Source: Eubacteriales bacterium
Lineage (GTDB): Bacteria > Bacillota > Clostridia > Oscillospirales > CAG-272
DNA: 60,737 nucleotides
Assembly (NCBI GenBank): GCA_045533115.1
Contig: JAZSHF010000072.1
Location: forward strand, 1-60,737
Direction: 5' to 3'
The stretch's first letter is position 1. Each line of letters begins with the position of its first letter. The translations under genes were made by a program, and so were the position numbers. Of this stretch, positions 8,282-17,539 are shown piece by piece. A model generated the notes under the pieces. The model saw nothing but the letters and a program-made list of their open reading frames with translations, was not told the DNA's origin and made no database searches.

Positions 8282-9124
8282 ATGAAAAAAAGAATTATTA
8301 CCAATCAAACAATAAGCTCGTTTAAGGAGTATTTAATCGAGAACGAAAAAGCAACCGCTACCATCGAAAAGTATATGCGAGATATACGCCTATTTACTGA
8401 ATACGCTACAGACAAGCCCTTGGATAAAGCTCTTGTGTTGGAATACAAGACGTCATTGGAACAGACCTATGCCATCAGAAGTGCAAACTCTATGTTGGCG
8501 GCTCTCAATGCCTTTTTTCGCTTCATCGGGTGGCACGAACTTTGTGTAAAGCAATTTAAGGTGCAAAAAGAGGTGTACTGTTCCGAGGAAAAGGAACTTA
8601 CCAAAGCGGAATACACCGCTCTTGTGAGAGTGGCTGAGCAAAAGGAAAATGAACGCTTATCCCTCGTGGTGCAAACGATCTGCGGAACAGGCATTCGTGT
8701 CAGTGAATTACAAAGTATTACGGTGGAGGCTGTACGCAAAGGAGAGGCAATTGTATCCTGCAAGGGAAAAACAAGAAAAATATTTATTGTAAGCGCCCTT
8801 CGGAAGAAACTGCTTCGATATGCATTAGAACACAAAATAAACTTCGGGATTATTTTCGTGACCAAAAACGGTAAACCTCTTGTCCGCAGTAATATATGGA
8901 GAGAAATGAAGAGTTTGTGTGAACAGGCAGGTGTTTCTCCCCAAAAGGTGTTTCCGCACAACCTACGCCATTTATTTGCGAGAACTTTCTATGGCATCGA
9001 AAAGGATATTGCAAAACTAGCGGATATTCTCGGTCACTCCAACATTAATACCACGCGAATTTATATCATCACAACCGGTGCCGAACATCAGCGACGTATG
9101 GAGAATATGCGGCTAATTATCTAA
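8282..9124 (+). CDS. Tyrosine site-specific recombinase (XerC/D-like, short form), candidate invertase for the adjacent switch
   Basis: 280 aa. Catalytic signature is present: TGIRVSEL (Arg), HNLRHLFA (HxxR) and LGHSNINTTRIY (His...Tyr). RBS GGAGG precedes the ATG. The gene is AT-rich compared with its flanks (by eye). Confidence 0.9.
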   Translation: MKKRIITNQTISSFKEYLIENEKATATIEKYMRDIRLFTEYATDKPLDKALVLEYKTSLEQTYAIRSANSMLAALNAFFRFIGWHELCVKQFKVQKEVYCSEEKELTKAEYTALVRVAEQKENERLSLVVQTICGTGIRVSELQSITVEAVRKGEAIVSCKGKTRKIFIVSALRKKLLRYALEHKINFGIIFVTKNGKPLVRSNIWREMKSLCEQAGVSPQKVFPHNLRHLFARTFYGIEKDIAKLADILGHSNINTTRIYIITTGAEHQRRMENMRLII

Positions 9125-9162
9125 AAAATAAAACCGCTACACTTTCGCAGCGGTTAAATATC

Positions 9163-9183
9163 ACATAATGGTTATTATGTTGT
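9163..9183. repeat. Left inverted repeat (IR-L) of the invertible segment
   Basis: ACATAATGGTTATTATGTTGT. It is the exact reverse complement of 9419-9439. Internally it has palindromic arms ACATAAT/ATTATGT around an asymmetric GGTT centre. Confidence 0.9.
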
Positions 9184-9254
9184 AATAAACAATAAAAATA
9201 AACAGTATACCTCGATTAAATGCTCAAGGGTAATCAAAAATGGGTACAACAAAT

Positions 9255-9286
9255 AAGACCTTTTGAAAAAATAACCAAAAGGTCTT
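9255..9286. terminator. 11-bp hairpin inside the invertible segment (insulating terminator candidate)
   Basis: aagaccttttg-aaaaaataac-caaaaggtctt followed by gtttctc. It lies upstream of the internal promoter. Confidence 0.5.
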
Positions 9287-9344
9287 GTTTCTCACGCCCA
9301 AAATCCGTTATTTTATGTAAATCTCAATTTTTTTGGTAAATCAC

Positions 9345-9373
9345 TTGATTTTTCGTTTGTATTATGCTATACT
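9345..9373 (+). promoter_or_regulatory. Sigma-A-type extended -10 promoter inside the invertible segment
   Basis: TTGATT-17 nt-TATACT, with a TGc extended -10 motif (TG at 9365-9366) within the spacer immediately upstream of the -10. Confidence 0.75.
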
Positions 9374-9418
9374 TTATTGTACTAAAAAGTAACGTGATAT
9401 GTTTGTTCGGCTTTATGA

Positions 9419-9439
9419 ACAACATAATAACCATTATGT
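9419..9439. repeat. Right inverted repeat (IR-R) of the invertible segment
   Basis: ACAACATAATAACCATTATGT, matching the reverse complement of 9163-9183 at 21/21 positions. Confidence 0.9.
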
Positions 9440-9519
9440 TGCCACTATCGTTATTCATTAAGCAAACACATAGTCTTTAGTCCACACGTAAAACGCAAAA
9501 AACCGCGCCTGAGCCTTAG

Positions 9520-9572
9520 AGCCTGTGCCATTTAATCGTTGTATACGATTATGGTACAGGCTTTTCTTTTTT
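9520..9572 (+). terminator. Strong intrinsic terminator in the leader between the switch and the first ORF
   Basis: agcctgtgccat ... atggtacaggct (one G-U pair, with an inner taatcg/cgatta stem) followed by tttctttttt. It lies 44 nt upstream of the TTG start at 9616. Confidence 0.7.
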
Positions 9573-16168: not shown

Positions 16169-16188
16169 TTTCACAAAAAACAAGCTGC

Positions 16189-16253
16189 CCCAACCCTTCG
16201 GGGTTGGGCGGCAATCAAAGGGTATAAGCAAGCCTTGTGCCTTTTGATTGCTG
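16189..16253 (+). repeat. Two-hairpin intercistronic element, copy B
   Basis: Hairpin 1 is cccaaccc-ttcg-gggttggg. Hairpin 2 is cggcaatcaaagggtataag...cttgtgccttttgattgctg. It begins 21 nt after the stop at 16168. Confidence 0.75.
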
Positions 16254-16303
16254 ATATTAAATGATTTCTCGGCAATAGTTATCGAAAAGCGAGGTATTCA
16301 CAG

Positions 16304-16441
16304 ATGTTATTATTCATTATAGGTCTCATTGCGGGCAGCGTATTTGGATTTGGCGTTTGCGCTATCTGCAGCATGGCTGGTAACAATCACCGCACAAAAG
16401 CATCCAAAGATACCGAAGATAGCGATGCTGCAAGTAAATAA
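16304..16441 (+). CDS. Possible 45-aa single-TM peptide (too short to appear in the ORF track)
   Basis: ATG...TAA encodes MLLFIIGLIAGSVFGFGVCAICSMAGNNHRTKASKDTEDSDAASK. GAGG lies 9 nt upstream. The ORF sits between copies B and C of the hairpin element. Confidence 0.4.
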   Translation: MLLFIIGLIAGSVFGFGVCAICSMAGNNHRTKASKDTEDSDAASK

Positions 16442-16627
16442 CCCCAACACCATACTTTATGCGTTCATTGGCTTCGTTGCCGTATTCCCGGCGATTTTGT
16501 GGTTATGAGGATATTATGGTTATTATTAATTCCGTTTGTAAAGTATCAATTTACTTACAACAGAGATTTTCTCTGTAGTGAGCGTGGTAATAAAATGTGT
16601 CTTGTCTTCAACTTTTTTACCTCGCGC

Positions 16628-16695
16628 CGCCCATCACTCTCTGATGGGCGGCAATCAAAGGGTACAAGCGTGGTTCTTGTGCCTTTTGATTGCTG
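16628..16695 (+). repeat. Two-hairpin intercistronic element, copy C
   Basis: Hairpin 1 is cgcccatca-ctctc-tgatgggcg. Hairpin 2 is ggcaatcaaagggtacaag...cttgtgccttttgattgct. It overlaps the spurious ATG of track ORF 16690. Confidence 0.75.
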
Positions 16696-16731
16696 ATGAT
16701 TCTTTTTCCATTTTGCAGGGAGGCAAATAAA

Positions 16732-17409
16732 TTGTTAAAAAACAAAATATTCAGCCTATTAGTATTGCTCGTTTCATTGGTAGCAATTCTGACATCTACG
16801 GTAAACTTCACCTTTGGTTTTATTGTGACAAAAACGAGTAGTTTAACAAATACCTTTGTTCCGGATATTATCAATTCCGATGATATTACTGTAAGCGTCA
16901 GAGTAAATAAGACGGTGAAAAATACCGGTGTTTCGTCAATTAGCCCCGCCGGATTTGAGTTTGTTTTGGAAAACACCGCAAGCGGCGAAAAGCTGGCACT
17001 AAAATCGGATGAAAACGGCAACGCTATCTTTACACTTCCATTCACCGAGGCTGATGCCGGAAAGACCTATACATACAAATTGTACGAAACCAATGACGGC
17101 ATGTCCGGCGTTACCTATGATACCAAGGTGTATCATATTTCTATTGCCATTACCTCTAACAACGATAATAAGCTTGTTTCAGCAATCACATTGGATGGCA
17201 AGAGTGTGAATGATGTCATTGCAAGATTTGAAAACACCTATTATACAGATCACACCATTTCACCGCCCACCGCAGATAACAACGATATCATATTCTGGCT
17301 GATTGTTATGATTAGTACGGCGAGTATAGTTCTCGTTCTTCTCGAAAAAAGATATGAACATTCACAATTCATCACCAAAGAAGAGATGATAGAACGAAAT
17401 GATGAATAA
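16732..17409 (+). CDS. Pilin-isopeptide-linkage-domain-like protein with a C-terminal membrane anchor
   Basis: An in-frame TTG at 16732 is preceded by GGGAGG at 16718-16723. The N-terminus has a TM helix followed by SSLTNTFVPDI (a TasA-like N-strand motif). The core FEFVLEN...AIFTLPFTEADAGKTYTYKLYETNDGMSGVTYDTKVYHISIAIT...FENTYY resembles the Spy0128/FctA-type pilin domain. The C-terminus is SPPTAD + TM + EKRYEH (sorting-signal-like, but not LPXTG). Confidence 0.6.
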   Translation: MLKNKIFSLLVLLVSLVAILTSTVNFTFGFIVTKTSSLTNTFVPDIINSDDITVSVRVNKTVKNTGVSSISPAGFEFVLENTASGEKLALKSDENGNAIFTLPFTEADAGKTYTYKLYETNDGMSGVTYDTKVYHISIAITSNNDNKLVSAITLDGKSVNDVIARFENTYYTDHTISPPTADNNDIIFWLIVMISTASIVLVLLEKRYEHSQFITKEEMIERNDE

Positions 17410-17506
17410 AATATTTGATAGTATCTTGAATGTTTTTAGAAATTCCGCCACTCGTAAACAGACGTATGACTGCCAATGCAAACGAAGCAAGAATATGCTG
17501 CCATTC

Positions 17507-17539
17507 AAAAAATCCATCGTAATTACGATGGATTTTTTT
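17507..17539. terminator. Bidirectional Rho-independent terminator closing the fibre operon
   Basis: aaaaaatccatcgta-att-tacgatggatttttt. Confidence 0.8.

Follow-up and report, generated by a model that had tools for sequence, protein, structure and literature searches.

A SipW operon of gut Clostridia that is probably phase-variable and encodes a heteropolymeric fibre of the TasA superfamily

Gene content of the locus

We describe here a run of co-directional genes in a 60,737-nt contig (JAZSHF010000072.1, assembly GCA_045533115.1; this whole stretch of DNA is called the window) of an uncultured, Oscillospirales-like gut Clostridia bacterium. In it, a dedicated SipW-type signal peptidase adjoins five exported proteins with a common N-terminal signal and a common first-strand motif containing an invariant Asn, and the set is preceded by regulatory genes and a recombinase-associated promoter switch. 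The open reading frame (ORF) listing and hidden Markov model (HMM) scans of the window place all of these genes on the plus strand. The shared cassette extends from 8156 to 17463 and, two variable stretches excepted, is 82–97% identical in DNA to three metagenome contigs by blastn (L001–L003; L numbers denote the related loci and contigs compared).

The first gene (8282–9124) encodes an Xer-like tyrosine recombinase of 280 aa (REC280; Phage_integrase, 90 bits), the predicted invertase of the adjoining switch; an exact look-up of the recombinase found nothing on record. The first gene 3′ of the switch codes for a 64-aa Cys-rich KTR zinc-ribbon protein (KTR, 9616–9810; Cys_rich_KTR PF14205, 36.5 bits, cutoff 25.5), which is kept in 20 loci, and is followed by a TetR-family regulator starting at 9955 (or 9913) and ending at 10542 (TetR_N, 36.7 bits). 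The SipW-type (archaeal/ER-type) signal peptidase I (10555–11124) scores 84.5 bits with TIGR02228, well above the cutoff of 51.85. Next come two proteins of ~210 aa: T1 (11111–11749, 212 aa), a TasA-superfamily protein and candidate major subunit, and its 211-aa paralog T2 (11832–12467), which has no HMM match and aligns with T1 in BLASTP at E = 1e-12. Two larger paralogs, BIG1 (12556–14067, 503 aa) and BIG2 (14246–16168, 640 aa), each begin with a T1-like module (residues ~1–272 and ~1–270, respectively) and continue into a pectate-lyase-like beta-helix in BIG1 and an unclassified, Gly/Asn/Thr-rich domain of ~370 aa in BIG2. A 45-aa protein with a single transmembrane (TM) segment, a CAIC motif and an acidic tail (TM45, 16304–16441) separates BIG2 from the 225-aa protein FCT (~16732–17409), which comprises a SipW-type signal, the donor-strand-like motif TKTSSLTNTFVP, one FctA/Spy0128-type domain and the C-terminus SPPTAD + TM + basic tail.

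The original prediction for this locus, which was made from the DNA letters, stood up to the ORF listing and HMM scans in its gene content, coordinates and shared motifs. All of the motifs it quoted are present, namely GTVAYL/GSLAWL at the predicted SipW site, N-x-[FM]-T-x-G-[ND]-[VI] just after it, SQAVQ.AGF at the end of the module, and NTF and SPPTAD in FCT; T1 has HAIQAAGF as the counterpart of SQAVQ.AGF.

A promoter on an invertible DNA segment

A repeat search found a perfect 21-nt inverted repeat between the recombinase and KTR genes (9163–9183 and 9419–9439). The left arm has the core ACATAAT-GGTT-ATTATGT, a palindromic recombinase site with an asymmetric spacer, and the pattern ACATAAT-N4-ATTATGT has two matches in the window against 0.24 expected, at those two places only. 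The arms enclose a 235-bp segment (9184–9418) that carries a consensus match to a sigma-70-type promoter (TTGATT-17-TATACT with a TG extension, 9345–9373, plus strand) pointing to the operon, in the ON orientation here, together with a two-way hairpin (9251–9290). The position of the promoter, ~60 bp from one end of the inner segment, is kept in homologous switches, and it is ON in the window and in 12 homologues. In ~20 loci the site lies ~38 bp after the stop codon of a 280-aa recombinase, with an inverted copy 235–260 bp further on. The 4-nt spacer varies between species (GGTT, GGGT, GATT, TGAA, TTTA, TCAT, CGAA), yet the two arms of each locus always match, as would be expected if the arms still recombine with each other or are under selection.

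Both orientations are seen between homologous loci of different genomes. In L031 the inner segment is exactly inverted relative to the window (alignment score 25 forward vs 288 reverse); the window junction joins ACATAATGGTTATTATGTTGT to AATAAACAAT in the ON state and would read into TCATAAAGCCGAAC in the OFF state, and the L031 junction, in which ATTATGTTGT is followed by TCATAAAGCCGAAC, matches that OFF prediction. In a second, more distant pair, L048 and L080, homologous inner segments lie in opposite orientations. We conclude that the ON/OFF DNA switch, which had been proposed earlier, is well supported by comparison of homologous sequences. A terminator scan found a minus-strand hairpin with a trailing T-run at 9132–9155, where leftward transcripts would stop in the OFF state; transcription arriving from the recombinase gene would be halted by the internal two-way hairpin. 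When JGI metagenomes were searched for OFF forms with the 21-nt repeat, eight contigs were retrieved, seven of them homologous to the locus of the window, and every orientation-resolving one was ON. The remaining contig (L017) is a different locus, in which the identical 21-nt site (816–836 and 1449–1469) brackets a 612-bp promoter-bearing segment beside a homologous recombinase of 326 aa. Because the site is used in this unrelated contig, the recombinase/site family serves other switches too.

Many homologous switches are more elaborate. Three to four copies of the recombinase site, paired across a hairpin-containing spacer of ~40 nt, are found in L001 (7985–8069), L031 (7892–7977 and 8216–8301), L016, L019, L023, L029, L030, L033 and L036, while the window has two; such extra sites would allow alternative inversions. 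Operons of the L004, L010, L013 and L014 type have different recombinases (289–373 aa by contig gene calls), the genes of which lie inside perfect 16–28-nt inverted repeats in either orientation (L010 5779–7250, L013 3421–4895, L004 7244–8719, L005 319–1408, L014 877–2123). L010 and L013 differ in the strand of the recombinase gene, and the breakpoint between them falls at the repeat. The motif ATTTAATCG (CGATTAAAT on the other strand) occurs in the 5′-terminal part of the recombinase gene (8327–8341), within the invertible segment (9205–9225) and shortly after the right repeat (9529–9546) of the window; the latter two copies form an 18-nt inverted repeat (89%) that is kept in L031 and may be an accessory binding site.

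Paralogous modules and their link to TasA

Profile–profile comparison with hhalign, using family alignments from 100 related loci, relates the N-terminal modules of the exported proteins over their whole length (~200–270 aa). T1 matches T2 with 99.9% probability (E = 7e-38) and the BIG N-module with 99.9% probability over 199 columns (E = 1.5e-31), a third class of small paralogs (LN) matches the BIG module at E = 2e-61, and BIG1 and BIG2 are 34% identical across their initial ~270 residues (E = 2e-47). T1, T2, BIG1 and BIG2 are thus true paralogs, as had been proposed, and since homology spans the entire module, the description of the BIG proteins as a complete T1-like module plus an extra domain is correct. 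The SipW-type signal itself is recognised by TIGR04088 (cutoff 19) in T1 (25.9 bits) and BIG1 (19.1 bits) and just missed in BIG2 (18.1 bits); T2 and FCT have the motif by alignment. The expectation that the profile would find this signal in the large paralogs therefore held for one of the two, the other falling narrowly short.

The link to TasA is carried by the first part of the module. With a TasA family query verified against 8AUR and 5OF1, hhalign gave the T1 family 92–96% probability (E = 6e-7 and 4.6e-9) and the LN family 96.8% (E = 2e-10). In local mode these alignments cover ~75 columns, running from the signal through the donor strand and on to a K-x-[FV]-x-V-x-N-x-G motif. Sub-threshold matches to PF12389 occur in 39 of 57 diverse relatives. 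AlphaFold2 (AF2) models of T1 and BIG1 are confident beta-sandwiches (predicted local distance difference test, pLDDT, 90.6 and 87.6), and the conserved segment 28–44 is unstructured in the T1 monomer model, as expected of a donor strand in a monomer. Membership of the TasA superfamily is therefore probable on profile grounds, the fold being unconfirmed: of the earlier TasA-like reading, homology in the first ~75 columns stood, and a PF12389 assignment and a Foldseek match to TasA were not obtained. The T1 family is very large and uncharacterised, with 5118 clusters at 50% identity (E ≤ 1e-3) and more than 7700 matches in the 90% collection.

Residue N36, within the donor segment V-x-N36-x-F, is invariant in T1, T2, LN, BIG and FCT. 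A Glu (E49) and a Lys show no or almost no variation in the accepting modules of T1, T2, LN and BIG and are not conserved in FCT; the Lys corresponds to K79 in T1 and to K128 of DKFVTVENTGK in BIG1. By analogy with BsaA, an Asn–Lys isopeptide involving N36, E49 and K79 of T1 may lock the inserted strand, which we regard as a lead and not as a result.

Head domains of the large subunits

The C-terminal domain of BIG1 is a right-handed beta-helix that matches Pectate_lyase_5 above cutoff (30.1 bits, cutoff 24.3). Foldseek relates it to phage capsule depolymerases (7lzj, 7vz3) and to a PL3 pectate lyase (4yzx) with probabilities of 0.98–1.0 and E-values of only 0.1–0.4. The corresponding ~370-aa domain of BIG2 found nothing in a PDB sequence search and nothing in a Pfam run on the domain alone. 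The beta-helix extensions proposed for both large paralogs were thus recovered in BIG1 by profile and structure searches, and in BIG2 Pfam detected neither GLUG nor Beta_helix.

FCT and its C-terminal signal

FCT passes the cutoffs of both FctA PF12892 (48.6 bits, cutoff 22.1) and TIGR03786 (43.3 bits, cutoff 31.85); a PDB sequence search gave only weak pilin matches (T-antigen, FctB3). A comparison of 28 distinct homologues showed that most are ~480–500 aa long with DUF7601 and FctA domains, and that several, the window protein included, are short one-domain forms. Their N-terminus is of SipW type and reads ...G[FY]IVTKTDSLxNTFVP, its Asn aligning with the invariant N36 of the TasA-like modules. 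The C-terminus of most of the 28 consists of [SAVT]PPTGD (with the variants PQTGD, LLTGD and PETGD), a hydrophobic stretch and a K/R tail, by sequence a classical sortase sorting signal, of which SPPTAD in the window is a variant. The motif resembles the (S/P)PXTG recognised by SrtB of C. difficile. The proposed composition of FCT, a TasA-like N-terminal motif joined to a Spy0128/FctA-type domain with SPPTAD + TM + basic tail, is confirmed.

A different conclusion is reached on the attachment of FCT. It had been put forward as a membrane-anchored base; because the family ends in PxTG[DE] followed by a TM segment and a basic tail, a wall-anchored base is likelier than a membrane anchor. FCT would be able only to donate a strand, since it has no accepting module.

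Conservation of the operon across gut Clostridia

A scan of species-representative genomes, in which ORFs were classified by HMMs seeded from the window proteins, yielded 80 loci; a first alignment (A1) was too diverse as a genome-locus query and a narrower one was used. All 80 come from Bacillota, in most cases Clostridia, and are represented by metagenome-assembled genomes or assemblies of uncultured isolates, the majority from the animal or human gut (Acutalibacteraceae, Oscillospiraceae, Christensenellaceae, Lachnospiraceae, Faecousia and others), and nearly all contain a SipW-type peptidase. Two architectures recur, one with SipW, T1, T2, one to four BIG genes and FCT (type A), the other with SipW, T1, T2 and three further small paralogs (type B). 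The full order REC280, KTR, TetR, SipW, T1, T2, BIG, BIG, (TM45), FCT is found in L029–L037, L040 and L046, in species where T1 is ~58–60% identical. This survey of gene neighbourhoods thus bears out the view that the genes form one evolutionarily conserved cassette. FCT lies downstream in 18 of the 19 type-A loci with enough flank and is therefore an integral member of the operon and no chance neighbour; a tyrosine recombinase lies ≤2.6 kb upstream in 9 of 18 type-A loci with enough flank.

Mobility and mosaic variation

The flanks of the cassette differ between genomes. In the window it lies between trkH and trkA upstream and tatD downstream, and it adjoins cotJB/cotJC in L001, L002 and L032. 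In L001, cotJB and cotJC lie upstream and a 93%-identical, 280-bp duplicate of the cotJC 3′ end lies downstream. The resulting direct repeat (6566–6845 and 16703–16982; cotJC 3′ end plus terminator) brackets the cassette and is the signature expected from integration of a circular intermediate. Neither direct repeats nor att-like sites were found at the ends of the window cassette (8156 and 17463).

Between the window and L001, protein identity is highest in the proximal genes (T1 100%, SipW 98%, T2 98%) and lower in the distal ones (BIG1 55%, BIG2 63%, TM45 71%, FCT 82%). In the identity comparison between strains, T2 is more conserved than T1. BIG1 of the window shares 88% identity with its L010 counterpart, whereas the T1 proteins of the two loci share only 71%, so the locus is mosaic. 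Homology at the DNA level (blastn) breaks at 12712–14061 and 15183–16191; the break in BIG2 corresponds to the variable C-terminal head, and in BIG1 nearly the entire mature protein differs. The heads of the large subunits are exchanged between strains, and the cassette is apparently transferable.

Transcription signals, distal hairpins and neighbouring genes

A conserved 7-bp hairpin, [AG]CAAACG-N5-CGTTTG[TC] with a co-varying closing pair, is followed by a T-run after the KTR gene (9888–9915, plus strand) and is a candidate (partial) terminator or attenuator. Directly before the TetR ribosome-binding site lies a conserved 21-bp palindrome, TTTGTAGTAAACACTTACAAA (9922–9942), a candidate TetR operator. 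Given the hairpin and T-run, KTR may be under direct control of the switch promoter, whereas the fibre genes may be reached only in indirect ways, by read-through or via KTR acting on TetR.

Three copies of a conserved double hairpin stand between the distal genes on the plus strand, after BIG1 (14084–14154), after BIG2 (16186–16255) and before FCT (16626–16697). Each consists of a variable GC-rich hairpin and then GGCGGCAATCAAAGGGYAYAAG-loop-YTTGTRCCTTTTGATTGCYG. We collected 38 distinct copies from more than 20 loci (the window, L001, L010, L013, L014, L024, L029, L031, L040, L046 and others), located after BIG genes and before FCT. RNAalifold on 33 copies shows a basal stem of 10 invariant bp and six distal pairs with compensatory changes, with almost no broken pair. 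No U-tract follows the double hairpin and it has no Rfam match; an Rfam scan of 7000–21000 returned nothing credible. The hairpins stand where the variable head regions end on their 3′ side, and might act in RNA processing or RNA stability, bind a protein or mark a limit of recombination. An integron-like attC reading was rejected, since GGCAATCAAA...TTTGATTGCC does not resemble the recombinase core, and that core occurs in the window only at the two switch arms.

TM45, located between two copies of the double hairpin, follows the pattern MLxFIxGLIxGG..GFGVCAICSMAG plus an acidic tail, and is probably a real gene because it is conserved in nine loci at ~70% identity. Downstream of FCT, the initial ~22 codons of an ORF at 17399–17620 match a conserved CxxC (zinc-ribbon-like) protein of 80–105 aa that is found 3′ of FCT in ~15 loci; this gene (17399–17463) is truncated at the cassette edge, as the homology ends at 17463. 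The bidirectional terminator proposed for the 3′ end is a perfect 16+16 palindrome with A- and T-runs (17507–17538), terminator-like in both directions, and lies beyond the shared cassette. Further downstream, a pair of genes occupies 18948–20812 on the minus strand, one of them encoding a second SipW-like peptidase of 289 aa with an N-terminal extension (TIGR02228, 40 bits, below cutoff). The next minus-strand gene overlaps its stop codon and encodes an exported protein of 332 aa without a family match, the signal of which ends in ...SGVFAYWQ. This pair, too, is outside the shared cassette.

A model of the operon product and its alternatives

We suggest, as on balance the most probable account, that the cassette is a horizontally mobile operon with phase-variable expression, and that SipW processes its exported products into subunits of a heteropolymeric TasA-superfamily fibre, with a shaft of T1 and T2, the variable-head subunits BIG1 and BIG2, and a sortase-anchored FCT base that joins by its donor strand. 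We infer that the subunits assemble and polymerise into a fibre and that they divide into major, minor and tip roles. After Sec export, cleavage by SipW would free the N-terminal strand of each subunit, which would insert into the beta-sandwich of the next by donor-strand exchange, as in TasA and BsaA, and might be locked there by the Asn–Lys bond considered above. T1 would probably be the bulk subunit and T2 an adaptor, while BIG1 and BIG2 would insert via the common module and present variable glycan-binding or glycan-degrading heads. FCT would donate a strand and accept none, and a sortase encoded elsewhere would attach it to peptidoglycan and so tether the fibre. FCT would then correspond in function to TapA, or to BsaB of other C. 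perfringens strains, which bears LPXTG. Flipping of the 235-bp promoter segment by the 280-aa recombinase would render expression phase-variable, and TetR together with the KTR protein could form a second layer of control.

A number of observations weigh against this reading. PF12389 remains under its cutoff of 22.5 in the window proteins (T1 17.4 bits, BIG2 12.9 bits), and its matches in relatives span profile positions ~4–57 of 196 only, i.e. the signal and first strands. Foldseek searches of the PDB with the AF2 models of T1 and BIG1 gave no match at E ≤ 1e-3, TasA (8AUR, 5OF1) being outside the top 50, and PDB sequence searches with T1, BIG1, BIG2 and a 57-sequence T1 profile returned no TasA or other meaningful match. 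The spacing of the putative isopeptide residues (N36-E49-K79) differs from that in BsaA (N35-E56-K74). FCT of the window, like that of its close relative L001, has SPPTAD instead of PPTGD (Gly to Ala). The earlier remark that no sortase gene is nearby was correct: the TLxTC sortase signature is absent from the 60.7-kb window, and in a motif search only 3 of ~100 loci have a sortase nearby, which implies that the enzyme is encoded elsewhere. The window's own type of switch has been found OFF once only, in another species (L031), and all 11 close assemblies of this type are ON. Finally, conserved hairpins stand downstream of KTR and again among the distal genes, and they make co-transcription of the set less certain.

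Several of these points would also be accommodated by a secretion and display module without a polymer, an explanation that we consider unlikely but the most serious of the competitors. SipW would then process individually acting proteins, the common N-module would serve export, folding or wall binding, the BIG proteins would be free or singly attached lyases or adhesins, and FCT would be an independent sortase-anchored adhesin. The missing structural match to TasA fibres, the strong hairpins between the distal genes and the resemblance of the BIG1 head to depolymerases and pectate lyases all fit such a module, as does the behaviour of C. perfringens BsaB, a TasA paralog that stays out of BsaA polymers (bioRxiv 10.1101/2024.11.04.621531). 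It leaves unaccounted for, however, why the first strand with its Asn does not vary among the five exported proteins, even the module-less FCT, why Glu and Lys are conserved in all accepting modules, why the order T1-T2-BIG-FCT is strictly conserved, and why homology to TasA falls exactly in the strand-exchange region.

Two further explanations concern the switch and the setting of the cassette. The 280-aa recombinase could be the integrase of a mobile island and the repeats remnants of attachment sites, with expression either constitutive or controlled by TetR only; the presence of the cassette at different chromosomal sites, the 280-bp cotJC direct repeat of L001 and the single orientation in all 11 close assemblies are in line with this. 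We consider it improbable, since in ~20 loci the repeats are inverted and co-varying, with 235–260 bp and a conserved promoter between them; moreover, the segment is exactly inverted in L031 and opposed between L048 and L080, the hairpin and T-run at 9132–9155 and the internal two-way hairpin suit an ON/OFF design, and no copy of the recombinase site is present at the cassette ends. In principle, one recombinase could do both inversion and integration. The cotJB/cotJC genes that adjoin the cassette in L001, L002 and L032 could also point to a locus for a spore-surface appendage expressed in the mother cell, which we regard as very improbable: the neighbours in the window are different (trkH/trkA and tatD), no sporulation promoter or spore-coat domain was found, and a sortase signal and SipW suit display on the vegetative wall. 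The literature on F-ENA spore appendages, which was considered in this context, proved unrelated.

The polymeric fibre model can be taken further, to a hybrid Gram-positive pilus in which a TasA-type shaft built by donor-strand exchange is locked by Asn–Lys bonds, the sortase substrate FCT tethers this shaft to peptidoglycan by plugging its donor strand into the last subunit, beta-helix heads on full subunit modules are interchangeable and the whole is a phase-variable, travelling cassette. We offer this extended form tentatively, as rather less likely than its opposite. In its boldest version, the double hairpins delimit the exchanged heads or fix, through the RNA, the ratio of the subunits.

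TasA-type fibres are known mainly as the biofilm matrix of Bacillus and C. perfringens, and how they are attached to cells and whether they carry adhesins are largely open questions. If the proposed fibre exists, a sortase substrate that joins by a donor strand would be a concrete answer to the question of anchoring, and TasA-type shafts would be seen to serve as modular adhesin carriers. It would also add a prominent phase-variable surface structure for gut Firmicutes, in which invertons are far less explored than in Bacteroides. The swapping of heads between strains suggests selection by host glycans, phages or immunity.

Comparison with known systems

The original prediction knew of no earlier description of such a combination. 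Parts of it are on record, as paralogs, tip proteins and LPXTG anchors in TasA-family loci have already been noted from gene neighbourhoods and AlphaFold 3 models; the specific conserved architecture is new, with full subunit modules fused to beta-helices and an FctA-domain sortase substrate bearing a SipW-type donor strand. Also new are the dedicated inverton with KTR and TetR, the mobility of the cassette and the conserved intercistronic hairpins.

In the tapA-sipW-tasA operon of B. subtilis (PMC9674648, PMC10151520), as here, a dedicated SipW accompanies proteins with the SipW-type signal that share profile homology in the first strands, and an accessory protein links the fibre to the cell; TasA is assembled by donor-strand exchange (PMC9674648). 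The present locus differs in having four paralogous modules instead of one, two of them fused to large C-terminal domains, in having a candidate anchor with an FctA domain and a sortase-type signal instead of TapA, and in being controlled by a DNA switch and TetR instead of SinR.

A closer parallel is found in C. perfringens sipW-bsaA-bsaB-bsaC (bioRxiv 10.1101/2024.11.04.621531; PMC7395162), likewise a clostridial SipW operon with TasA-like paralogs, the donor motif V-x-N-x-F and the Glu and Lys residues. In BsaA, strand exchange (donor strand with V33 and F37) is followed by locking, in which E56 catalyses an isopeptide bond that joins donor residue N35 to K74, and LPXTG-bearing BsaB has been proposed as a wall anchor; clusters of TasA/BsaA paralogs with LPXTG or SpaA proteins and sortases are also on record (bioRxiv 10.1101/2024.11.04.621531). 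Unlike in the bsa operon, the N-E-K spacing here is different, there is neither a vWA protein (BsaC) nor an adjacent sortase, and beta-helix fusions, an FctA anchor and an inverton are added. Several TasA paralogs are likewise present in the B. cereus TasA/CalY/CapP system, for which TasA/CalY heterofilaments have been shown experimentally and an accessory protein helps the two TasA paralogs to co-assemble (PMC13082335); that system, in contrast, is sortase-independent and without adhesin-fused subunits or a DNA switch.

The AbpX/Tafi loci of the TasA superfamily encode a major subunit, minor subunits, a predicted tip protein, a signal peptidase and an anchor; co-assembly of minor, tip and LPXTG-anchor partners by donor-strand complementation has been predicted, and in Clostridium amylolyticum an LPXTG anchor is predicted by AlphaFold 3 (AF3) to join the AbpX fibril via donor-strand complementation (bioRxiv 10.64898/2026.01.04.697558). 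By their descriptions they are set apart from the locus studied here, which presumably represents a different subfamily and has a two-TM SipW-type peptidase instead of a 10-TM one, beta-helix heads on full subunit modules, and an inverton instead of c-di-GMP or two-component control. With sortase-assembled pili (Spy0128/FctA backbone, FctB anchor) the locus shares an isopeptide domain of the FctA/Spy0128 type and a putative C-terminal sorting signal. It lacks, however, a pilin motif, a pilus-specific (class C) sortase and a Sec-type signal. The N-terminus is of SipW type with a TasA-like strand, and the sortase would anchor only and not polymerise.

As for its control, the switch is similar to E. 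coli fimS (FimB/FimE), to the RecV switches of C. difficile (PMC7446863, PMC9286219) and to the invertons of Bacteroides, each of which pairs a tyrosine recombinase with short inverted repeats around a flipping segment, whose promoter controls a surface structure. Unlike in these known promoter invertons, a dedicated Xer-like recombinase of 280 aa travels with the operon that it is predicted to control, and among its relatives there are switches with duplicated sites and others in which the invertible segment contains the recombinase gene itself.

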